A DNA stretch of 53,313 nucleotides from an uncultured Bacteroidota bacterium (GTDB lineage: Bacteria > Bacteroidota > Bacteroidia > Bacteroidales > CG2-30-32-10), in NCBI GenBank assembly GCA_903847905.1, contig CAINEZ010000350.1, forward strand, positions 1 to 53,313. Reading direction: 5' to 3'. The notes under the pieces are model-generated. The model had not been told where the DNA came from. It saw nothing but the letters and a program-made list of their open reading frames with translations, and searched no databases. Below, piece by piece: positions 7,227-40,055 of this stretch (position 1 is its first letter; each line of letters begins with the position of its first letter). A program made the position numbers and the translations under genes.

Positions 7227-8059
7227 TTGAAAATAGGAATTAGTATATAAATTCGACTGTTAAAGAAAACCTAAGCGCATAATTGATACTTCTTATAATG
7301 GTAATTTGCTTTCTAATATATGTGAATTGCACGAATTAATATTTTTTTTTTCTATGAATTTTGTTAATTATTTAAAACTTTATAATTTAGTTTTTTTAGT
7401 TGGGAAAAAAATCGGTTTTTAAATTGATTCATAGTATTAATAAATGTATAATTTATACGAATAAAATCTCAAAATCTTCTGAAGAGCCAATCAAGTAATA
7501 ATCACAAGTGGTTTTTATGAGTTAATTAACTTTCGATTTCAGTTTATTGAATGTTAAGACTATAAATATCAATATCCCCCTTTTTAGGTAGATTGAAAAG
7601 ATGCTGCAAAATGTTACTGATAATTTTTGTATATTCGATTCAGAAGGATTAAAAGCGCTAAATAGGTACAATACCATGCGGTATATACGTTATTATTTTA
7701 TTGAAAAAAGTTAAGCAGAATATATGATAAAATGAGTATTTTGAATTTTTCGCTCTTGTTTTTTAATAATTAATGAACGTAATTTGTTAACCGCAATTTA
7801 ATAAAAATATAATCAAATGATGAAGTTGAATTTTCAGTTTGGTTTAAATTTTTCAAGATTCCTTTATGAGGTTTTTACAAAAGGAAATAATTGTTTATTT
7901 GCTAATGCCAATTTTTGCGCTAAAAAAACTTATCCTACAAACAGGAAACTTTTACCACAATTAATTCTCTTTATAATCCAGTATTTTTTTTTTATTTTAG
8001 GCAATGCTTTGTCAAAGGATTGTTGGAAAAATTGAAACAAGAAAATTTTTATAGTATTT

Positions 8060-8118
8060 GTGGATACCAGAGACCACTATAATAAACGGGGCGGAACTGA
8101 AAAGCCAAATGAGTAGGG
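8060..8118 (+). promoter_or_regulatory. conserved upstream element, copy A (short form)
   Basis: GTGGATACCAGAGACCAC-TATAATAAACG-GGGCGGAACTGAAAAGCCAAATGAGTAGGG. It ends 22 nt before the ATG at 8141. Confidence 0.7.
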
Positions 8119-8140
8119 AAAATAAATAAGAATTATCATT

Positions 8141-8452
8141 ATGGATGAAATTCAAAATCAACAAGATCAGTCTACTCAAACTATAGTTATTAATCAGATT
8201 AAAAAGAAATCAAATGGATTAGGTACAGCAGGTTTTATTCTTGCATTAATAGCAGTTTGTTTAAGCTGGATTCCAATCATACAAATGGTAGGAGGGGTAC
8301 TATGGTTTCTGGGCTTATTATTTTCCTTTATCGGAGTATTTAAAGCCCCCAGAGGTTTAGCTATTGCAGGCTTAATAATTTCCTTGATTGATCTGATTAT
8401 ATTAATTGCAGTATTTGGAGCTCTCTTAGGGATTGGGTCTATATCACATTGA
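8141..8452 (+). CDS. small membrane protein (2-3 TM, DUF4190-like look)
   Basis: A polar N-terminus is followed by GLGTAGFILALIAVCLSWIPII, VLWFLGLLFSFIGVF and GLAIAGLIISLIDLIILIAVFG. Element copy A lies upstream. Confidence 0.6.
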   Translation: MDEIQNQQDQSTQTIVINQIKKKSNGLGTAGFILALIAVCLSWIPIIQMVGGVLWFLGLLFSFIGVFKAPRGLAIAGLIISLIDLIILIAVFGALLGIGSISH

Positions 8453-8470
8453 AGTATCATAAAGAATAAA

Positions 8471-8552
8471 GTGGAGACCAGAAACCACTAAAAAAAACGG
8501 CCTAATCCGATAGGATTATCGGGGGGCGGAACTGAAAAGCCAGATGAGTAGG
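8471..8552 (+). promoter_or_regulatory. conserved upstream element, copy B (long form with inserted hairpin)
   Basis: GTGGAGACCAGAAACCAC-TAAAAAAAACG-[GCCTAATCCGATAGGATTATCG]-GGGGGCGGAACTGAAAAGCCAGATGAGTAGGA. The inserted hairpin is TAATCC/GGATTA. Confidence 0.7.
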
Positions 8553-8567
8553 AAAAATATAAAGAAT

Positions 8568-8963
8568 ATGGACAATAATAAATTTAATAATTTCTATTCA
8601 AAGAAATCGGTAAGTGAATTATTAGGACAATTGCGTTCAAATAGAATGACTGGGGCTACAATGGATAAGGAATGGTATGAAGGTTTAATAGCACATCTTC
8701 GTGAAAGAAACTTATCATTTCAAGAAAGGAATATGTTTGAATATATTATTTCTACAGATCCGGAAACTCTTATGACCGAAAGTGAACCCCGAATAGTTGA
8801 AGAAAATATTAATAATAATAAAATGGCTCTAATAGATGAGCATGAAAAGTGGTACCATAATTGGGCTGCTATATTTTTTACAATTACTGCTGCAGTTACT
8901 ATTGGAGTGGTAGTTGGTATTATAATTATAGGAACATTACTTAGTAAAAAATTAGGATTTTAA
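8568..8963 (+). CDS. tail-anchored membrane protein, unknown function
   Basis: The ORF track starts at 8544, but that ATG is the invariant ATG inside the conserved element. The next in-frame ATG is 8568 (MDNNKFNNFY...). There is a single C-terminal TM (AAIFFTITAAVTIGVVVGIIIIGTLL). Confidence 0.55.
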   Translation: MDNNKFNNFYSKKSVSELLGQLRSNRMTGATMDKEWYEGLIAHLRERNLSFQERNMFEYIISTDPETLMTESEPRIVEENINNNKMALIDEHEKWYHNWAAIFFTITAAVTIGVVVGIIIIGTLLSKKLGF

Positions 8964-9056
8964 TTGAAACCTGTCTATAATAAAGTTCCTCATATTTGGT
9001 GGTTGGCACCGCCTTCATGGAAATATGAAATGAGATAATAATTGAAAATAAACAAA

Positions 9057-9551
9057 ATGGAAATAATAAATGTTTTATTAATGGCAGGGGGAGGTTCAGG
9101 AGGTAGTAGCATATGGTCACAATTTGTCGTTGGAATATTATTTGTTTTAATTTTTGGCTTTTTCTTTATTAGAAATCGGAAAAAAAACAAAAACAATCCT
9201 AAGATTAAGCGTGAAGGAATACCTCCTCAAAAGAAATTGACAATAGGTATTATCATATTTGTGGTTGGTATTGTTTCAATAATAATTGCAGCTATATTTC
9301 CATCTGACGGTTCAGCACAAAAAGAAGAAGAACGCTATTTTTTATATATTCCAGGTTTTATAATCTTAATAGTTGGTGCAATTAATATAGCTGTTAATAT
9401 TGGCCGTATTACCAAACAAAATAAAGTAATTCCTGAAATAAAAGACAATACTGACCAATTTGACAAGCTTGAAAAATTAGCAAAATTAAAAGATCAAGGT
9501 GTAATTACTGAAGAGGAATTTATTGAACAAAAAAGAAAAATATTAAATTAA
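9057..9551 (+). CDS. membrane protein with C-terminal SHOCT-like domain
   Basis: The track start at 9042 is TTG; the first ATG is 9057 (MEIINVLLMAGGG). It has 3 TM helices. The C-terminus DQFDKLEKLAKLKDQGVITEEEFIEQKRKIL matches the SHOCT pattern. Confidence 0.6.
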   Translation: MEIINVLLMAGGGSGGSSIWSQFVVGILFVLIFGFFFIRNRKKNKNNPKIKREGIPPQKKLTIGIIIFVVGIVSIIIAAIFPSDGSAQKEEERYFLYIPGFIILIVGAINIAVNIGRITKQNKVIPEIKDNTDQFDKLEKLAKLKDQGVITEEEFIEQKRKILN

Positions 9552-9559
9552 AAATAAAA

Positions 9560-9616
9560 GTGGAAACCAGAAACCACTATAAAAAACGGGGTTTGAATGA
9601 AAAGACAAACGACTAC
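9560..9616 (+). promoter_or_regulatory. conserved upstream element, copy C (short form, divergent 3' block)
   Basis: GTGGAAACCAGAAACCAC-TATAAAAAACG-GGGTTTGAATGAAAAGACAAACGACTAC. It ends 23 nt before the ATG at 9640. Confidence 0.55.
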
Positions 9617-9639
9617 ATTAAAAATTAAACCAAAACAAA

Positions 9640-9924
9640 ATGAAAAATTACATTATAATTTTTAAGTTATTTGTGATAGTAGGCATGCTTTACTTCACAT
9701 CATGCAAGAAGTGCGAAACCTGTACTCAAACTAAAACAACATCTATTGACGACCAAAGCTATGTACCCGGCTATCCGAAAACAACAACGTCAACCTTTGA
9801 AGCATGCGACGATTCCTTGGCAGAAATTGATGGAAAAACTATTACTTCGCATGATTATCTATACTTTGGACCAGGTTATAACAATGAATTTGTAACAATT
9901 ACAAATACTACAACATGTAAGTGA
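9640..9924 (+). CDS. small Cys-containing lipoprotein/secreted protein
   Basis: Signal peptide with a lipobox-like YFTSC. 94 aa. Element copy C lies upstream. Confidence 0.55.
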   Translation: MKNYIIIFKLFVIVGMLYFTSCKKCETCTQTKTTSIDDQSYVPGYPKTTTSTFEACDDSLAEIDGKTITSHDYLYFGPGYNNEFVTITNTTTCK

Positions 9925-9944
9925 ACCAATACCTACCTTTAATC

Positions 9945-9972
9945 ATTCGAGCGCAAAGGCGAATATTTTTTT
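9945..9972 (+). terminator. possible intrinsic terminator
   Basis: A 5-bp stem ATTCG/CGAAT followed by ATTTTTTT. The stem is short. Confidence 0.4.
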
Positions 9973-10068
9973 CAGCTATGTTAGTTTACAACTGGTTGAT
10001 ATTAGAATGAAGAAGTGTTGAATTTTGGAATACCAAAGATGGAATAGAATAACAATTCATAAAAAAAC

Positions 10069-10128
10069 GTGGAGACCAGAGACCACTGAAAAAAACGGGG
10101 CGGAACTGAAAAGCCAGATGAGTAGGGG
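10069..10128 (+). promoter_or_regulatory. conserved upstream element, copy D (short form)
   Basis: GTGGAGACCAGAGACCAC-TGAAAAAAACG-GGGCGGAACTGAAAAGCCAGATGAGTAGGGG. It ends 24 nt before the ATG at 10153. Confidence 0.7.
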
Positions 10129-10152
10129 TAATTTAAATAATGTGTACAGAAA

Positions 10153-11487
10153 ATGATGAAGCCTAAATTTTGTAATAAATTTATTTTGGGTATTCTATTT
10201 TTGCTTTCATTAAATTCTTATGGTCAGAAAGCACTATTAGAAAAAGATGGTATAATTTATTGTGCCAAAGTATATGGGTATAATATTGGAACAAATGACT
10301 TTATTATTGAATGGTTATCAAATTTTGATGAAAAATTTGAAACTTATAAAAATAATGAATTTGAATTAAACGCAAAAAGAAATGAAGCCTTGCAAGAAAT
10401 AAATGCATTATCTAATGAATTACAATTTACAGATATTTATACACAGAAAATGGATGCAGAATTTGGGCAGTATGATTTTAATACTAAAAATTTCGAATTT
10501 AAACCTTTACAATTTGCTGATGAAAAAAAGCAAATTAATACTTCATCTTATTTTTATGTGCATACAAATATTATAAGTGCTGATCATAATAGAGCCGAAG
10601 TTTACGCATTGAATTTTAAAGATTTTGATGGGATTCCTATGGAAACTAATGATGCAAACTTATTTATAAATAATAGAACTAAACAGGGATATAACTCTTC
10701 TTATGTCAATAGAAAAGTATATCTAAAAATTTATTTTTCGATATTACCTGAAAAAATGCAAGATAATTATGGTTGGGGTGGATTAAAAGATATTGGACTA
10801 TATAGTTATGTTTATAAGATTGAAGTATGGGGCGATGAATGTATGTCAGGAAATAAAATAGCAGTTCTTAATGCTAAACAACAACCTCCAACATACCTTT
10901 TAGCTACAGGAGAGGAATTTAATAAAAATTATGATTTAGGTAATACTCAAGAAAAATTGCCTTTGGAGCAAGGATGGATAAAAATTGTTGATCAAACTTT
11001 ATATAATAATAACAGTTCAAATTGTAATAAAAAAAATCATTTTGAAATACATCTTTCAATGGAGAAAGACTATGGTGATTTATATAAAATAAAATTTAAG
11101 TTTCGTACAAATGCTTGTTTAATTTTTTCACCAGGATTTTTTTATACAATTACTGATTTTAAAGAGAATAAATATCCATTATTAGTAACTGATGTCACTG
11201 ATAATATAGTAAATGATTATAAAATTGTATCTGTAAGAATTAATAAAGAAACTCTAAAAAGTCTCGGTGACGGTGGTTTAGCAGATATCAAATTTCAATT
11301 TAACCCAACTTCACAATATCAAGGGTCTTCTAATTATACAAAATATTTTACCAATAAAAAATGCACATCATCTATTTATTTGTATGTTAATTGGTCTTCA
11401 CTAAAAAAGGAAGCTCCTGAATATTGGTTGGATGAAAATGCAAATGATGATTTTAAAAAAATGATAAAAACAATTTTAAACCAATAA
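10153..11487 (+). CDS. secreted protein; N-terminal domain paralogous to 40056..41555
   Basis: Signal peptide ILGILFLLSLNSYGQ. The segment NRKVYLKIYFSILPEK...LYSYVYKIEVWGDE aligns by eye with NRKIYLKFTYSILNKQ...DIYVYSIDVLENE of the 40056 gene. Confidence 0.7.
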   Translation: MMKPKFCNKFILGILFLLSLNSYGQKALLEKDGIIYCAKVYGYNIGTNDFIIEWLSNFDEKFETYKNNEFELNAKRNEALQEINALSNELQFTDIYTQKMDAEFGQYDFNTKNFEFKPLQFADEKKQINTSSYFYVHTNIISADHNRAEVYALNFKDFDGIPMETNDANLFINNRTKQGYNSSYVNRKVYLKIYFSILPEKMQDNYGWGGLKDIGLYSYVYKIEVWGDECMSGNKIAVLNAKQQPPTYLLATGEEFNKNYDLGNTQEKLPLEQGWIKIVDQTLYNNNSSNCNKKNHFEIHLSMEKDYGDLYKIKFKFRTNACLIFSPGFFYTITDFKENKYPLLVTDVTDNIVNDYKIVSVRINKETLKSLGDGGLADIKFQFNPTSQYQGSSNYTKYFTNKKCTSSIYLYVNWSSLKKEAPEYWLDENANDDFKKMIKTILNQ

Positions 11488-11490
11488 AAT

Positions 11491-13122
11491 ATGAAAACAA
11501 AAATTTTAATTATTTTTACATTTATATGTTTGATTATAAGTTCTTGTGGAAATAAAGGTCATGAACTCAAATTAATACCTTATAAGGCTGGTGATCTTTG
11601 GGGTTATTTGGATAAAGATGGTAAAATTGTAATAAATCCACAATTTAATCAGGCTAATGTATTTGTTAATGGATTAGCCTTAGTACAATCTCCCGATAAT
11701 AAATATGGTTATATCGGTGAAGATGGCAAGTATATAATCAATCCAACCTATAAATATGCAACATCTTTTTCGGAAGGTTTCGCATGTGTAGTAATTGAAA
11801 ATGGCAAACCTCAATTTATCAATGAAAAAGGAGAAGTTAAATTTACAGTAGAAGGAAGCGAATATTGCGGTGTATTTAATGATGGATTTGCTCTGGTAAA
11901 AACTGGTGATTTGTGGGGTTATTGTGATAAAACAGGCAATATAAAAATCTCACCTCAATTTGATTATGCATTTCCTTTTTCAGAAGGTTTAGCTGCTGTT
12001 GCAAAAACAAATAAAGAAAAAAACGAAACTTTATGGGGATTTATTAATGATAAAGGAGTGATAATAATTCCATGTCAATTTCAACGAGTAAATTCATTTT
12101 CTGAAGGATTATCATTAGTGAGCGATGGAAAAAAATATGGATATATCGATAAGAGTGGTAAATATATTATAAACTCACAATTTGATAATGCAGGTGATTT
12201 TAAAAATGGTATGGCAATAATTTATCAAGGATCGTTATTTGGTTTTATAAATAAGGCAGGGAAAATAGTTATTAATCCACAATTTAAAAATGCTTTTGCC
12301 TTTTCAAATAACAATGATATTACATTGGTTTTTAGTTCTGATAATAAAGCAGGCTATATTGATAAAGAAGGTAAGTACGTTATCAACCCACAATTTGAAA
12401 ATGGAACTAATTTTTATAATAATATTGCATTTGTTTGTTCAGCAAATAAGTGGGGTATAATTGATAAAAAAGGCAAATATATAGTAAATCCTCAATTTGA
12501 AAACATTAATGTTGATTTTGAAAGGATCAAAACATCAATTATCGAATCAGATTATTTTGATATTCCTACTGTAGTAGACAAGTTTCTTACAGGTACTGAT
12601 ACGAAAAATTTCAGAGGTTTGAATGAAAAGACAATTTACTCAATTATTGATAATGCAATTCCAGCTGGAACGCCTCATTTGACAATTTATGGTAATAAAG
12701 CAACAACCTCAACACAAGAAGATTTGGATAAAATGGTTTTCATTAGTCAAAAATATTATTATTTTACTCAAGATATTTCTTCTCAAAAACCAGTATATAA
12801 AACAGAAAAACAATATAATGCTTATAGGGGCGGATATTATAATGCACAGATTTTTGACCATTATGATAACATTTATAATACAAATTCAGTTTTAATGGGT
12901 GCAGACTTTATACTTGGCTTTTCAGGAAAAGCGTATAATAAGAAGGTCGATATTATGACTGCGATCGGAGATGCAATAGCTCTTAAAATTGGTGTAAAAG
13001 ATAAAATTGATAATACAGGTAATAATGTGGAAATTAATAATAGTGATCTAGACATTCATATCGATAAAAATAAAGGTCAAGTTGGCTTTTATTTTATGCA
13101 ATATAATGCGGGCGGTGATTAA
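11491..13122 (+). CDS. lipoprotein with KWG/WG-containing beta-propeller-type repeats
   Basis: Lipobox LIISSCG. There are more than 8 repeats of the type DLWGYLDKDGKIVINPQF / NKYGYIGEDGKYIINPTY. Confidence 0.8.
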   Translation: MKTKILIIFTFICLIISSCGNKGHELKLIPYKAGDLWGYLDKDGKIVINPQFNQANVFVNGLALVQSPDNKYGYIGEDGKYIINPTYKYATSFSEGFACVVIENGKPQFINEKGEVKFTVEGSEYCGVFNDGFALVKTGDLWGYCDKTGNIKISPQFDYAFPFSEGLAAVAKTNKEKNETLWGFINDKGVIIIPCQFQRVNSFSEGLSLVSDGKKYGYIDKSGKYIINSQFDNAGDFKNGMAIIYQGSLFGFINKAGKIVINPQFKNAFAFSNNNDITLVFSSDNKAGYIDKEGKYVINPQFENGTNFYNNIAFVCSANKWGIIDKKGKYIVNPQFENINVDFERIKTSIIESDYFDIPTVVDKFLTGTDTKNFRGLNEKTIYSIIDNAIPAGTPHLTIYGNKATTSTQEDLDKMVFISQKYYYFTQDISSQKPVYKTEKQYNAYRGGYYNAQIFDHYDNIYNTNSVLMGADFILGFSGKAYNKKVDIMTAIGDAIALKIGVKDKIDNTGNNVEINNSDLDIHIDKNKGQVGFYFMQYNAGGD

Positions 13123-13197
13123 TATTATCCAACCCTTGGTTCAGGTTCCACCTCCATCGAAATATTAAATGAGTAAATGATTCTAAACAAAATAAAA

Positions 13198-13252
13198 ATG
13201 GAGACCAGCAACCATTAAAAAACGGGGCGGAACCGAAAAGCCAGATGAGTAG
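13198..13252 (+). promoter_or_regulatory. conserved upstream element, copy E (short form, compensated stem)
   Basis: ATGGAGACCAGCAACCAT-TAAAAAACG-GGGCGGAACCGAAAAGCCAGATGAGTAGG. Both stem sides are changed relative to the other copies (GTGG/CCAC becomes ATGG/CCAT). Confidence 0.7.
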
Positions 13253-13283
13253 GAAATAAGCTGTTTAACTTAAAACTAAGAAC

Positions 13284-14717
13284 ATGAAAAAGACAAACAT
13301 TTTTTTGCTGTTTTTAACCGCAACATTTTTGATTGCACTACTTTCAGGTTGTGCAGGAAAAAAAAACAATCTTAATACAGGATTAATACCTGTAAAAAGT
13401 AATGATAAATGGGGATATGTAGATAAAGAGGGAAAATACATCATCAATCCCCAATTTTCATACGCCGATTACTTTATCAATGGAATCGCATTGGTAAAAA
13501 GCAATGATAATAAGTATGGATTTATTAATGAAAAAGGTGAATATTTGATTAATCCACAATATAAAAATGCTATGCCATTTTCTGAAAATATGGCTTGTGT
13601 TATTTCAGAAGGTTGTGTTCCGAAATACATCAACAAAAAAGGTGATATTTTATTTGAAGTGCCAACAGCAGAGCAGGCGGGCAATTTTCATAACGGTTTT
13701 GCCAGAATAAAAAATAAAGACAACAAATGGGGATTTGTTGATAATACTGGGAATATTAAAATCAATTGTCAATACGATGGTGTAAATGATTTTAACGAAG
13801 GGATGGCTGCCGTAATGAATATAAATAAGAAAGACACTACTAAGACTTTTGAAGAATGGGGTTATATAAATGAAAAAGGTGAAATGATTATTAATTTCCA
13901 ATTTAAGGATGCGTCACCATTTATTGAATCTTTAGCCAGAATTACATTAGATTATAAACAATATGGATATATTGATACTAAAGGAAAAATGATAATAAAT
14001 CCTCAATTTGATGCAACTACGATATTTACCGATGGACTTGCTCCATTTAGATCGGGGAAATTATGGGGCTTTATTGATAAAACAGGTAAAATAAAGATCA
14101 ATCCTCAATTTGACGAAGTTGGTTTAATAAATAATAAACTAATTCCTGTAAGATCTGGCGAAAAATGGGGATATATTGATAAAGAAGGCAAGATTGTTAT
14201 TAATCCGCAATTTGACGATGCACTTTCATTTTTAGGCGATATTGCCATGGTGAAATCTTCCGACAAATGGGGTTTCATTGATAAATCAGGTAAATATATA
14301 GTAAATCCACAGTTTGAAGATATAAACAGAGATATATTAACATACCTAATTATCGGTTCTGATTGGGGAAATATTGTAGTGAGTGATAAAATACCACCTG
14401 TCGAAGAAATTGCTGAGAAATTTCTTACCTTTTTGAATAGAAAAGATTATGATGAAGCTAGAAAACTTGGTACCGAAAATACCAAACAAATGCTTGATAT
14501 GATGAAGAGTTTTGCTGGTGCTGCTGCAAAACCTACCGTTACAAAAGATGTAAAGATTGAGAATCTGAAATGTGATACAAATAATGATAAGGCTAGATGT
14601 ACATATACAGCCGAAGGGAAATTGGAATCAATTGATTTAGTAAAACAAGACAATAAATGGTTGGTTGATATGAAAAAGGAAGGTGGAGGGAATAATGCTT
14701 CATCACCAGGTGAATGA
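13284..14717 (+). CDS. lipoprotein with KWG/WG-containing repeats (paralogue of 11491..13122)
   Basis: Lipobox LLSGCAG. Repeats of the type DKWGYVDKEGKYIINPQF. The C-terminal roughly 110 aa are distinct. Confidence 0.8.
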   Translation: MKKTNIFLLFLTATFLIALLSGCAGKKNNLNTGLIPVKSNDKWGYVDKEGKYIINPQFSYADYFINGIALVKSNDNKYGFINEKGEYLINPQYKNAMPFSENMACVISEGCVPKYINKKGDILFEVPTAEQAGNFHNGFARIKNKDNKWGFVDNTGNIKINCQYDGVNDFNEGMAAVMNINKKDTTKTFEEWGYINEKGEMIINFQFKDASPFIESLARITLDYKQYGYIDTKGKMIINPQFDATTIFTDGLAPFRSGKLWGFIDKTGKIKINPQFDEVGLINNKLIPVRSGEKWGYIDKEGKIVINPQFDDALSFLGDIAMVKSSDKWGFIDKSGKYIVNPQFEDINRDILTYLIIGSDWGNIVVSDKIPPVEEIAEKFLTFLNRKDYDEARKLGTENTKQMLDMMKSFAGAAAKPTVTKDVKIENLKCDTNNDKARCTYTAEGKLESIDLVKQDNKWLVDMKKEGGGNNASSPGE

Positions 14718-14740
14718 TTTGCTGGAATTATTGATAATTA

Positions 14741-14779
14741 AGCTATTGCTCTGGTAACAGGGCAAAAGCTTTATTATTA
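14741..14779 (+). terminator. intrinsic terminator
   Basis: The stem AGCTATTGCTCTG / CAGGGCAAAAGCT pairs at 12 of 13 positions (one of them a G-T wobble). GTAA loop, followed by TTATTATT. Confidence 0.65.
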
Positions 14780-14825
14780 TGCGCAATATGAACTTTTAAT
14801 ATTTGGTATCTAAAATAGTATAAAA

Positions 14826-14878
14826 ATGGAGACTAGGTACATTTAAAAAATTGGAATACGGCCGAAAACCAAGTATTG
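14826..14878 (+). promoter_or_regulatory. conserved upstream element, copy F (degenerate)
   Basis: ATGGAGACTAGGTACAT-TTAAAAAATTGGAATACGGCCGAAAACCAAGTATTG. The order of blocks is recognisable but many positions are changed. It ends 34 nt before the ATG at 14913. Confidence 0.4.
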
Positions 14879-14912
14879 ATTTTTATTTAGTATAAATTAA
14901 TAAGAGATAATC

Positions 14913-36213: not shown

Positions 36214-36257
36214 AAAAAAATAAGCCAAACCTTTTACTAATTTGGCTTATTTAAAAA
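36214..36257 (-). terminator. intrinsic (bidirectional) terminator
   Basis: A 10-bp stem ATAAGCCAAA/TTTGGCTTAT flanked by A-run and T-run. It lies downstream of 36272..36682. Confidence 0.8.
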
Positions 36258-36271
36258 AACATAGAAATTTC

Positions 36272-36682
36272 CTAGTTTATGCATCCATTACTACATCCAG
36301 GAGAAAATCCGCCACTATCGGCAATCTTTTCCCAGGTTCTAGTCTTAGCAGTTGTATTAAATATTAACCTTCCTTTAATCCAATAACTGGCACCAGAAAT
36401 TGATCCAGTCCACGATGCCATCATTGTGATTGTGATATTTCCAGTTAATTTACTAATTCTTGTTTGGCAAGTTCCATTACCATCGGCATCCCAATAAACA
36501 GTTGCTTGTAAATTGTTACCGCCCCATTTCGAACAACAACTCATCAAGTTACTTGCTGCCTGATTTGCCAAATCCTGAATTTCAGATTTCGCATCAGGGT
36601 CATTTTTTAATTCAGAACAATCTTGTGCTTTAACGCCCATTGTCCATATCAACATCCAAAAAATTAAAAAAACTTTTTTCAT
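36272..36682 (-). CDS. small secreted Cys-containing protein
   Basis: Signal peptide MKKVFLIFWMLIWTMGVKAQ. Element copy G lies upstream. Confidence 0.65.
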   Translation of the reverse strand: MKKVFLIFWMLIWTMGVKAQDCSELKNDPDAKSEIQDLANQAASNLMSCCSKWGGNNLQATVYWDADGNGTCQTRISKLTGNITITMMASWTGSISGASYWIKGRLIFNTTAKTRTWEKIADSGGFSPGCSNGCIN

Positions 36683-36701
36683 AATATTAATTTATTAATT
36701 A

Positions 36702-36789
36702 CCCTACTCTTAAGGCTTTTCAGTTCCGCCCCCAAGTTTTTTACCTGACCGGGACAGGCTCGTTTATTTAGTGGGTTCTGGTCTCCACT
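36702..36789 (-). promoter_or_regulatory. conserved upstream element, copy G (long form)
   Basis: The minus strand reads AGTGGAGACCAGAACCCACT-AAATAAACG-[AGCCTGTCCCGGTCAGGTAAAAAACTT]-GGGGGCGGAACTGAAAAGCCTTAAGAGTAGGG. It ends 20 nt before the ATG at 36682. Confidence 0.7.
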
Positions 36790-36805
36790 TTTATTTATTA
36801 TTTCT

Positions 36806-36829
36806 CAAAAAAATAGACCGCTACGCGGT
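36806..36829 (-). terminator. intrinsic terminator
   Basis: On the minus strand: ACCGC-GTA-GCGGT followed by CTATTTTTTT. It sits between the stop of 36860..37453 and element copy G. Confidence 0.5.
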
Positions 36830-36859
36830 AAGTATCAAATTGTCAAATAGACAAATAAA

Positions 36860-37453
36860 TCAATAATCGCTAACACAACGCACAGAGAACCCAGAAGGCT
36901 TACTGGTAGTGTTTCTGTATACAACGCTGTCTTTACCGTCCATGCCCATGTGCCAAGCATTATCTATATCATACTCTGTAGAACTCCACCAGTTACCGTT
37001 GTATCCAATGTCGTAAAATGTTCCATAGTGGGCCCGTAAACCTCCCGGAAGGGCTGTAAAGCCACTGGTGTTAGTGCCATTGCCATTTTCATTCCATCCG
37101 TTCTTAGATTTCATTTTTTCACCGGCAACTAAAACTCCACCAAAATTATTAATCAGCGTTGTCCATTCTGCATCGCTTGGTAAATGCCAACCTGTGGGGC
37201 ATACATTTTTAGCTGTTCCCCAACTATAAAGATAACCATAGTTTTTCACATTGTTTTGATCATCATTATATGCCCAACAGCCACTATCTGCTTTAAAAGC
37301 AAGGTTCTCCGCCATCCATGTTTGGGTGCCAATTTTTACGGTTTTGTAAGTTTTACCATCTCTTGAATCGGTAAAAGAACCAATTTGTTGAGCAAAGGAA
37401 CTTATTGCAAAAATAAACATAGCAATTGTCAATGATAAATTTTTGTTTTTCAT
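36860..37453 (-). CDS. Fibrobacter succinogenes major paralogous domain (Fib_succ_major) lipoprotein/secreted protein
   Basis: FTDSRDGKTYKTVKIGTQTWMAENL...YLYSWGTAKNVCPTGWHLPSDAEWTTL...GFTALPGG...WWSST. The track start at 37492 is a TTG inside element copy H. The ATG at 37453 gives MKNKNLSLTIAMFIFAISSFAQQ. Confidence 0.8.
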   Translation of the reverse strand: MKNKNLSLTIAMFIFAISSFAQQIGSFTDSRDGKTYKTVKIGTQTWMAENLAFKADSGCWAYNDDQNNVKNYGYLYSWGTAKNVCPTGWHLPSDAEWTTLINNFGGVLVAGEKMKSKNGWNENGNGTNTSGFTALPGGLRAHYGTFYDIGYNGNWWSSTEYDIDNAWHMGMDGKDSVVYRNTTSKPSGFSVRCVSDY

Positions 37454-37470
37454 TTTAATAAATAATTTTC

Positions 37471-37553
37471 CCATAATCATCTGGTTTTTCAATTCCGCCC
37501 CCGATAAAATTACCTGATCAGGACAGGCTCGTTTTTTATAGTGGGTTCTGAAT
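37471..37553 (-). promoter_or_regulatory. conserved upstream element, copy H (long form, 5' hairpin half lost)
   Basis: The minus strand reads ATTCAGAACCCACT-ATAAAAAACG-[AGCCTGTCCTGATCAGGTAATTTTATC]-GGGGGCGGAATTGAAAAACCAGATGATTATGG. It ends 17 nt before the ATG at 37453. Confidence 0.6.
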
Positions 37554-37582
37554 TTTGTTATTTTTCAGATTTATTGTTATGT

Positions 37583-38023
37583 TTAATAAGACCACCATTC
37601 AAGAGTAAGTGCTAAACAAGTCAATTCTTTTCCATTCATATTTGCAATGGTTTTATTAATTCTCTGCTCAAATTTACTTTTTTGCTGATTTGAATTATTT
37701 TTGATGTAGTCTATTGCTAGATCTTTAATGTTTTCTATTGCACCAAAAGGGGACATCCAGGGGTCATCATCCTCAATAACATCAATACCTGTGAACCAAT
37801 TTCCATCTCTAAAAATTTTAACTATAGTTGGCCTTTTTTTATAATCAACTCTTACCCAAACATAACTATCATCAACAGTGAATTGACCAGAAACAAATGT
37901 ATTTGTAGGATGAGCACATTCTGCAACAATTCCAACCCCTTTACTTCTAAAAAAATCATCCATAGATTGGCTAAAACAAAATGCTGGTAATAAAAAACAC
38001 AAAACCAATAAAAGTTTTTTCAT
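37583..38023 (-). CDS. small secreted protein, unknown function
   Basis: Signal peptide MKKLLLVLCFLLPAFCFSQ. Element copy I lies upstream. Confidence 0.65.
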   Translation of the reverse strand: MKKLLLVLCFLLPAFCFSQSMDDFFRSKGVGIVAECAHPTNTFVSGQFTVDDSYVWVRVDYKKRPTIVKIFRDGNWFTGIDVIEDDDPWMSPFGAIENIKDLAIDYIKNNSNQQKSKFEQRINKTIANMNGKELTCLALTLEWWSY

Positions 38024-38044
38024 AATTGAACAATTTTAGTTTTT

Positions 38045-38132
38045 CCTACTCTTTAGGCTTTTCAGTTACGCCCCCGATTTTTTTGTCTGTTCGGGCCAGG
38101 CTCGTTTTTTTTAGTGGATTCTGAACTCCACT
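38045..38132 (-). promoter_or_regulatory. conserved upstream element, copy I (long form)
   Basis: The minus strand reads AGTGGAGTTCAGAATCCACT-AAAAAAAACG-[AGCCTGGCCCGAACAGACAAAAAAATC]-GGGGGCGTAACTGAAAAGCCTAAAGAGTAGGA. The stem is extended to GTGGA/TCCAC. Confidence 0.7.
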
Positions 38133-38832
38133 TCAGGTTATTTTCTAATTCTAATTTCAAGATTCTAATTTCGAATACTATATTTTTACTTTTTGAAATA
38201 AAAAGTCAAAGTACAATTAATTTTATTTGATAAACAAATTTTTTCTTTGAAATTTAACGAATATTTTTCAATTATTTTTTTTTACACGCTGGGTGCCTTA
38301 TACATTGTGCATTTCAGAATATTTGCGAACTGTCTGCGTACTGGGATAGGCATCTTATATGATTGAGTTGTCATTTCCGTTGATATTATGGCAATATAGA
38401 AATTTGCAAAATGTAGAATCTGCATTTATTTTTCATTTATTTTTTATACCCGTTATAAATTTCTTTTCGGGTTGGGCACATACAGATAAATCTACCGCCA
38501 AACGGCATCTTGTTTGTGCAAAATTTATTGATACTACATTGTATAAAATGAATTTCGTTTTCAATACATTGTTCAACTTTACACAAAGTGTGGTTTTCGT
38601 TTTTCAGACAGCTAAATTCTTTTTCTAAACAAAGAGTTTGGTTAATAGTTTTTTCGTTGATCTAAAATTTTATTGAAAGAATTTTCCACCTTCCAATGTT
38701 CCCTTTGTTGCAGTATACAAAATCTTAAATCTCTTTTCTTTTCAGGTATGCCAATCATCTTTCGCCACAAGTAAAAACGCCATGCTATTCTGCAATTATT
38801 ATTCAACCAAATAAAACTTACCTCCCATTGAA

Positions 38833-39927: not shown

Positions 39928-39979
39928 GATGGTTTTTTTATTTTGAATTGAAAATTAGTTATTTTTGAGGTACAATAAA

Positions 39980-40037: not shown

Positions 40038-40055
40038 AAATTTATAATAAGAAAA

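Follow-up and report, generated by a model that had tools for sequence, protein, structure and literature searches.

Long forms of the DUF805 leader RNA in Bacteroidota contain a predicted H-type pseudoknot that pairs with the conserved G-run

DUF805 is among the most abundant orphan RNA motifs of Bacteroidota. It is held in Rfam as RF03081, in a clan (CL00115) shared with DUF805b (RF02914), and it reportedly goes back to the comparative-genomics survey of Weinberg et al. in 2017. The text of that survey (PMC5737381), its supplements aside, does not mention DUF805, and literature searches on DUF805, DUF805b and both accessions returned benchmark papers only and no experimental paper on the motif; a transcriptome paper on Flavobacterium psychrophilum does not mention it. 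Here we analyze a repeated element in a window of 53,313 nucleotides (nt), the whole of contig CAINEZ010000350.1 from the assembly GCA_903847905.1 of an uncultured Bacteroidales bacterium. On the minus strand of the window three consecutive small genes (I, H and G) each have a copy of the element directly 5' of them, and another long copy, B, lies on the plus strand. Judged by covariance models and conserved sequence blocks, the element is the DUF805 motif, a Bacteroidota mRNA leader, and not a new one, and the insert that lengthens copies G, H and I is predicted to fold as an H-type pseudoknot. Taken together, we regard this identity and this structure of the long form as likely.

The resemblance to RF03081 extends over the whole leader. 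It comprises a 5' hairpin (hairpin 1) of GUGG/CCAC with a AGACCAGAAA loop, an A-rich linker running into ACGGGG, a stem P2 (GGC/GCC) with the loop GGAACYGAAAA, and a GAGUAGG tail, and it includes the Bacteroidota host and the site just upstream of genes. The core pattern, from the A-rich linker to ACGGGG and on to P2 with its loop, was found in eight copies in the window against 0.05 expected, and in G, H, I and B the linker of this core is split between ACG and the G-run. The 5' hairpin is present in G, I and B, and the 3' tail, (A)UGAGUAGG upstream of the gene, recurs in the copies. Copy H is degenerate: the 5' arm of its hairpin 1 is missing, P2 contains a C·A mismatch, and GAUUAUGG stands in place of the usual tail. 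DUF805b resembles the element in its 3' half only (P2 and the GAGUAGG tail), where the match of copy I falls short of the DUF805b gathering score of 35.6 bits; DUF805b differs in having no hairpin 1, linker or insert.

A scan of the window with RF03081 (68 model positions, gathering score 51.1 bits) gave 75–86 bits for the short copies and lower values for the long ones (Table 1). The matches of G and I are under the gathering score, with E about 1e-7, and all core blocks align in them; H was not matched. The shortfall of G and I and the miss of H arise because the insert has no counterpart in the model and is placed by cmscan in the P2 loop. A long-form model that includes the insert (R1) recovers G, H and I at 75–100 bits, and the Rfam model thus under-detects long forms. 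The source genome has 18 RF03081 matches in addition to H, and the leader was found in 23 of 41 relatives. A search of 401 Bacteroidales genomes with a model derived from long forms detected it in 169, more than 40% of those sampled.

A preliminary description of the window, made from the sequence, had noted an insertion of 27 nt between ACG and the G-run in G, H and I, and it is exactly 27 nt in each of them: read between …AAACG and GGGGGCG, the inserts are AGCCTGTCCCGGTCAGGTAAAAAACTT in G, AGCCTGTCCTGATCAGGTAATTTTATC in H and AGCCTGGCCCGAACAGACAAAAAAATC in I. Six short copies had been said to lack it altogether; five of these do (at 8055, 9555, 10064, 13193 and 39975), but the one at 14826 is degenerate. 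Among 122 distinct copies the stretch between hairpin 1 and the G-run has two length modes (7–13 nt versus 31–45 nt), which makes the long form a discrete class. By a pattern scan of species-representative genomes and an order-level search we gathered 63 distinct long forms in which the insert occupies precisely this junction. Their sources are Bacteroidales, Ginsengibacter, Ferruginibacter, Haliscomenobacter, Mucilaginibacter, Flavobacterium and Fluviicola, so that the orders Bacteroidales, Chitinophagales, Sphingobacteriales and Flavobacteriales are represented. The inserts can be aligned, with the consensus G-GCCUG-yCCYGnn-CAGGY, an A/U-rich stretch of 6–9 nt and (n)nCG before the G-run. 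From this alignment we judge the inserts, that of copy B included, to be a single homologous module found across the phylum, with CCYG conserved in its loop.

In the predicted structure a local hairpin of 5 base pairs (bp), GCCUG/CAGGY, forms the first helix (S1). In the second (S2), 5–7 nt of the S1 loop, CCYGNN, would pair with the complementary 2–4 nt that precede the G-run and with the first three G of GGGGCG. The A/U-rich linker of 6–9 nt would cross S1, and S2 would abut P2; since the 3' strand of S2 runs straight into the 5' strand of P2, the three helices could stack. The loop lengths of this pseudoknot (L1 of 1 nt, L2 of 0–1 nt and L3 of 6–9 nt) are sterically feasible, and each of the two helices that define the H type covaries.

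The covariation was measured on an alignment of 110 sequences (A2), made with a model in which S1 is included and S2 is not. S1 is paired in 86.5% of cases, with 65 cells changed on both sides, and none of 500 shuffles was as high; registers slid along the alignment reach 18–48%. Covariation of the inserted stem, which the preliminary description had proposed to look for in further long-form copies, is therefore present. For S2, which lies outside the aligning model, the corresponding values are 84.9% paired, 99 cells changed on both sides, again 0 of 500 shuffles as high, and 31–62% for slid registers. In a register-free comparison of the loop with the 3' strand, the mean helix was 5.76 for cognate and 4.37 for non-cognate combinations, and the observed value was not attained in any of 20,000 permutations (maximum 4.90). 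A blind all-against-all scan for mutual information placed an S2 pair at the top (CG 33, AU 21, UA 8, GC 6), followed by pairs of hairpin 1 and S1 and by further pairs of S2. More than 15 distinct complementary variants of S2 occur, among them CCCCGCA/UGCGGGG, CCUGUU/AACAGG, CCUAAA/UUUAGG, CCCACU/AGUGGG, CCCGAC/GUCGGG and CUCCGGA/UCCGGGG. The helices of the leader itself also covary: hairpin 1 is 96% paired, its outer pair being G-C in 76 sequences, A-U in 16 and U-A in 4, and P2 is 98.5% paired.

The preliminary description had seen in the insert a simple optional hairpin, CCTG-N7-CAGG, of conserved place and free sequence and closed by CGA/TCG. The stem itself is there in G and H (GCCTG-N7-CAGGT), but in copy I it contains a C·A mismatch (CAGAC). 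The existence and covariation of S1 would suit such a simple hairpin, as would the truly variable hairpins that are carried at two other sites of the same leader. The notion of free sequence does not agree with the conserved CCYG loop, and the covariation of that loop with the 3' flank, which makes the structure a pseudoknot, largely refutes the simple hairpin. The proposed closing helix was rejected as well (69% paired versus 66% in shuffles, with 4 doubly changed cells), and its TCG belongs to S2. Together with the homology of the insert of B to the other inserts, this makes a simple hairpin very unlikely.

The insert of copy B sits at that junction too and can fold as TAATCC-GATA-GGATTA, as had been pointed out, but its sequence is not unrelated to the others, contrary to what had been supposed. 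In a close relative, CAIWKO01 (L119 6288–5910), which is 92% identical to positions 8178–8556 of the window over the gene at 8141–8452 and leader B, GCCTGCCCCGATAGGATTATCGGGGGG stands where B has GCCTAATCCGATAGGATTATCGGGGGG, a difference of three adjacent substitutions. In B the helix UAAUCC/GGAUUA and the helix CCGAUA/UAUCGG, of the type found across the family, are mutually exclusive. Copy B and its relatives (L023, L119, L132 and others) form a short-insert subtype, in which S2 is a hairpin of 6–8 bp with a 4-nt loop and excludes S1; here only an S2-type helix, as a simple hairpin, would be geometrically possible. The trait shared by all long forms is then a C-rich strand predicted to capture the G-run, which in the Rfam consensus of the short form has no pairing partner. 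The S1/S2 domain is not in the Rfam consensus structure either, and we consider this long-form domain, together with its pairing to the G-run, to be a structural variant that has good support and is missing from the Rfam model. As a separate observation, the homology with CAIWKO01 ends at the 3' end of leader B and the downstream gene is a different one; the boundary between leader B and its open reading frame looks like a cassette-exchange junction.

Several lines of evidence indicate that the whole element, from hairpin 1 onward, is transcribed RNA and not a promoter. Hairpin 1, at the 5' edge, covaries and would therefore have to be transcribed. On the sense strand G·U combinations outnumber A·C by 64 to 16 in S1 and by 49 to 23 in S2, that is, two- to fourfold, and hairpin-forming inserts of 20–45 nt are tolerated at three different sites of the leader. 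The argument of the preliminary description that this is a structured RNA and not a spacing-sensitive DNA site is borne out by these results. Its further argument, that the promoter lies within or overlaps the element, had been drawn from the tiny gap between the terminator and copy G. This gap is real and measures 18 nt from the U-tract to hairpin 1. However, other copies in the window begin 4, 14 and about 40 nt past the stop codon of the gene that precedes them on their own strand, so that the short gap before copy G need not put a promoter inside the element.

The sigma-A promoter consensus of Bacteroidota is TTTG at −33 and TAnnTTTG at −7. Among 106 copies no TAnnTTTG or TTTG box was found at a fixed upstream distance; their positions spread over −67 to −5 without a peak, and the core of the element has no TTTG on the sense strand. 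A scan for sigma-70-type promoters found no more sites than in shuffled sequence (12 versus 10.8). The −7 box of Bacteroidota is named in PMC9723704. A reading at the DNA level, with a promoter or operator within the element and hairpins that are incidental or serve as protein-binding dyads, could appeal to the 18-nt gap and to the very high conservation of the primary sequence. We consider it highly improbable in view of the covariation of hairpin 1, S1, S2 and P2, the excess of G·U over A·C, the inserts of 20–45 nt at three sites, which spacing-sensitive sites do not allow, the lack of TAnnTTTG inside the element or at a fixed distance, and the position of copies 4–40 nt behind upstream stop codons. 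We also rejected an attC-like or cruciform DNA site, since the element does not form a single long imperfect palindrome, is conserved in primary sequence, and has more G·U than A·C on its sense strand.

Copy G itself may be transcribed by read-through of the weak 5-bp terminator or from an A/T-rich promoter that would overlap this terminator; TTTTTTTG is found at a distance of 17 nt on the 5' side of hairpin 1. The positions of the leaders in general fit read-through or a promoter at variable distance. Upstream of several leaders, at 25–40 nt, we observed a motif, (T)TGACAC-TTCTTGACA-N6-10-GACTGAYAA, with repeated TGACA units. It occurs in the source genome (C528:11028 and 11472, C621:11297, C319:123) and at loci L020 and L027, and is absent upstream of G, H and I. 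The motif may bind a regulator, act as an alternative promoter or serve as a site of cassette recombination.

Compact H-type pseudoknots also occur as aptamers, such as those of the preQ1-I and guanidine-III (ykkC-III) riboswitches. These share with the long form a pseudoknot of 30–40 nt in a 5' leader, built from a hairpin loop and a downstream strand, and in some copies an A-rich third loop; the likeness is one of fold class only, as the helix topology and the conserved positions differ and the long form has no evident ligand or expression platform. Copy G even has the string CCCGGUCAGG in common with a guanidine-III sequence. A known pseudoknot riboswitch (guanidine-III, preQ1-I) was rejected, there being no covariance-model match at E ≤ 10. 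The pseudoknot could still be a small ligand-binding aptamer, which would make the long forms a riboswitch-like subclass of an otherwise constitutive leader. The H-type topology, the A/U-rich third loop and the conserved CCYG core would agree with this, as would conservation across several orders of the phylum and the coexistence of both forms in one genome. We nevertheless think it unlikely: a cmscan of 36690–36800 returns DUF805 only and no Rfam aptamer at E ≤ 10, few positions outside the helices are invariant, L3 ranges from A-rich to U-rich, and the downstream genes have no common metabolic theme.

The composition of L3 also bears on whether S1 and a U-rich L3 might act as a weak intrinsic attenuator, with termination modulated by the formation of S2. 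A terminator scan flags S1 of copy H with the following AAUUUUAU, and many relatives have a U-rich L3 (for example AUUUUAU or GUUUUUG). In G and I, however, L3 is A-rich (UAAAAAAC and CAAAAAAA), the stem has only 5 bp (about −6 kcal/mol), and S2 does not compete with S1; an attenuator is extremely unlikely. We give almost no credence to the idea that a selfish or mobile palindrome inserted at this site and plays no part in the leader. One leader (L082) does carry the module in tandem, and the leaders sit on shuffled accessory cassettes. Against this, the insert is always found at the same junction and in the same orientation, the 3' strand of the module includes pre-existing conserved bases of the leader, and compensatory changes have kept the pairing across several orders.

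With regard to function, the DUF805 leader is a cis-acting part of the mRNA with its 3' edge about 20 nt before the start codon, mostly of genes for exported or membrane proteins. The distance from GAGUAGG to AUG has a median of 19–20 nt and an interquartile range of 17–22 nt in both forms (114 copies). The downstream genes are unrelated to one another (Fib_succ_major, DUF4852, WG repeats, MORN_2 and many orphans), and a hydrophobic segment is found in 69% of 121 downstream N-termini versus 41% of a crude background of open reading frames. The long conserved unpaired stretches of the leader suggest recognition by a conserved partner. We therefore propose, tentatively, that a portable leader acts after transcription, where a conserved trans-acting partner, either the ribosome or a protein, would set translation initiation or the fate of the mRNA. 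The long form is the same leader with a conserved accessory domain between the A-rich linker (…AAACG) and the invariant G-run, and the pseudoknot may alter or gate the activity of the leader by masking the G-run and making the junction with P2 more rigid.

A more specific version, which we find doubtful, has the G-run as the single-stranded business end of the leader, docking with the CC of the hairpin 1 loop, with a protein or with the ribosome; the insert would be a competitor in cis, and the long forms would be separately gated by temperature, a ligand or a helicase. In the hairpin 1 loop, the first C is kept in 50 of 54 short copies versus 43 of 63 long ones (Fisher p = 0.001, the samples not being independent). 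This relaxation in the long forms may hint that the G-run contacts that loop in short forms. As to such a pairing in short forms, both sides are nearly invariant, and the weak relaxation is its only signal.

On this more specific version, Bacteroidota, which largely do without Shine-Dalgarno initiation, would use the leader as a portable translation-initiation module for accessory genes. The specific capture of the invariant G-run by an optional domain points to the G-run as a functional determinant. Masked and unmasked versions of the leader occur naturally, at times side by side in one genome, and such a pair is a ready experiment on the partner of the leader and on its effect on translation.

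The following points weigh against the structure and function proposed here. ViennaRNA cannot model pseudoknots, and S1 and S2 could be alternative folds that are not formed simultaneously. Folding by energy alone does not inform on the pseudoknot: z lies between −1 and −2.3, and the minimum-free-energy fold takes S1 for copy H, S2 for copies I and B, and for copy G a hairpin of its own. In copy G the predicted S2 is weak (−3.5 kcal/mol, with two G·U pairs) and the copy-specific hairpin of the minimum-free-energy fold is CAGGU/ACUUG; in copy I it is S1 that is weak (−1.7 kcal/mol). Because the sequences share ancestry, the shuffle statistics treat them as more independent than they are, and the presence of S1 in the model behind A2 is a bias toward S1. 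That the element is transcribed we infer from covariation alone, and the function of the leader is wholly inferred. Finally, about 30% of the downstream proteins look cytoplasmic.

The features of the four long copies and of the genes next to G, H and I are listed in Table 1.

Table 1. Positions of long-form DUF805 leaders, their predicted helices, and the neighboring genes and terminators in the window
Feature	Position	Strand	Basis or remark
Copy G, long-form DUF805 leader RNA	36697..36793	-	RF03081 46.5 bits; long-form model R1 96.6 bits
Copy G hairpin 1 (GUGG-AGACCAGAAC-CCAC)	36771..36788	-	pattern match; family helix covaries
Copy G insert, 27 nt (AGCCUGUCCCGGUCAGGUAAAAAACUU)	36734..36760	-	direct sequence reading
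Copy G S1 hairpin, GCCUG (36759-36755) with CAGGU (36747-36743), 7-nt loop	36743..36759	-	sequence and S1 covariation; -6.1 kcal/mol
Copy G S2, loop CCCGG (36753-36749) with UUGGG (36735-36731), weak, two G·U	36731..36753	-	family-wide covariation; -3.5 kcal/mol
Copy G stem P2 (GGC/GCC), loop GGAACUGAAAA	36714..36730	-	Rfam consensus structure
Copy G conserved tail GAGUAGG, 20 nt 5' of AUG at 36682	36703..36709	-	sequence
Copy H, degenerate long-form leader	37468..37563	-	no RF03081 match; R1 75.3 bits
Copy H insert, 27 nt	37503-37529	-	sequence
Copy H S1	37528-37512	-	-6.1 kcal/mol
Copy H S2, CCUGAU with AUCGGG	37522-37517 with 37505-37500	-	-5.2 kcal/mol
Copy I, long-form leader	38039..38136	-	RF03081 43.3 bits; DUF805b 33 bits on 3' half; R1 100 bits
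Copy I hairpin 1	38131-38114	-	
Copy I insert, 27 nt	38102-38076	-	sequence
Copy I S1, GCCUG with CAGAC, one C·A mismatch	38101-38097 with 38089-38085	-	-1.7 kcal/mol
Copy I S2, CCCGA with UCGGG	38095-38091 with 38077-38073	-	-6.3 kcal/mol; in minimum-free-energy fold
Copy B, long-form leader, short-insert subtype	8466..8558	+	RF03081 54.3 bits
Copy B insert, 23 nt, same junction as G, H and I	8500-8522	+	
Copy B hairpin of the preliminary description, UAAUCC with GGAUUA	8503-8508 with 8513-8518	+	-6.0 kcal/mol
Copy B family-type helix, CCGAUA with UAUCGG	8507-8512 with 8517-8522	+	-6.9 kcal/mol; used in minimum-free-energy fold
Gene G, 136 amino acids	36272..36682	-	signal peptide; no Pfam family
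Gene H, exported protein of 197 amino acids	36860..37453	-	Fib_succ_major domain (PF09603, E 5.7e-34)
Gene I, 146 amino acids	37583..38023	-	signal peptide; no Pfam family
Intrinsic terminator after gene H	36807..36829	-	5-bp GC stem ACCGCGTAGCGGT and U7
Intrinsic terminator after gene G	36214..36257	-	14-bp stem and U7; -16.5 kcal/mol, z -3.65

The two intrinsic terminators that had been reported at 36806–36829 and 36214–36257 are both real, the former reading ACCGCGUAGCGGU followed by U7 at 36829–36807. The claim that each of the three genes is its own unit stands only in part, as the roughly 40 nt between the stop codon of gene I and copy H are unstructured and contain no terminator. Genes I and H are thus probably not separate units, and with the lost hairpin 1 arm of copy H this means that the three cassettes are not equal, independent units. 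Immediately 5' of copy I, at 38137–38175, the minus strand carries two direct copies of GAAATTAGAAT separated by 3 nt.

Spurious starts of open reading frames lie inside some leaders, namely a TTG in GGAAUUGAAAA of copy H (37492) and an ATG in GCCAGAUGAGUAGG of copy B (8544) and of the copy at 39975 (40029). The real starts are the ATG codons at 37453, which is the true start of gene H, at 8565 and at 40053. From 8055 to 14900 on the plus strand small genes follow one another on one strand, most of them with a leader in the intergenic gaps of 4–140 nt; the genes at 9042–9551 and 11491–13122 have none. This layout looks like a polycistronic array with internal leaders.

Two further insertion sites were observed in the leader. 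At the second, a hairpin lies inside the P2 loop, between …ACCGA and CAGGAAAGCC, and gives a separate long form; examples are CCUGUC-UGCC-GACAGG and, in a relative, CCGUC-AGCU-GACGG. It occurs in the source genome (C328:154–234, C149:2406–2493, C27:6379–6466 and C319:123–194) and at L020 and L021. The third site is directly 3' of hairpin 1 and 5' of the A-rich linker, where the hairpins are truly variable in sequence (for example ACCCGU…ACGGGU and CCGCCGCGGCGG); it is occupied at L019, L022, L027, L028, L029, L035, L086 and L134, and at L086 and L134 the pseudoknot insert is present as well. In L082 (G084:C246:854–1158) the pseudoknot module stands in tandem within one leader, each module having its own complementary 3' strand, CCUGAC/GUCAGG in the first and UUCGAC/GUCGGG in the second.

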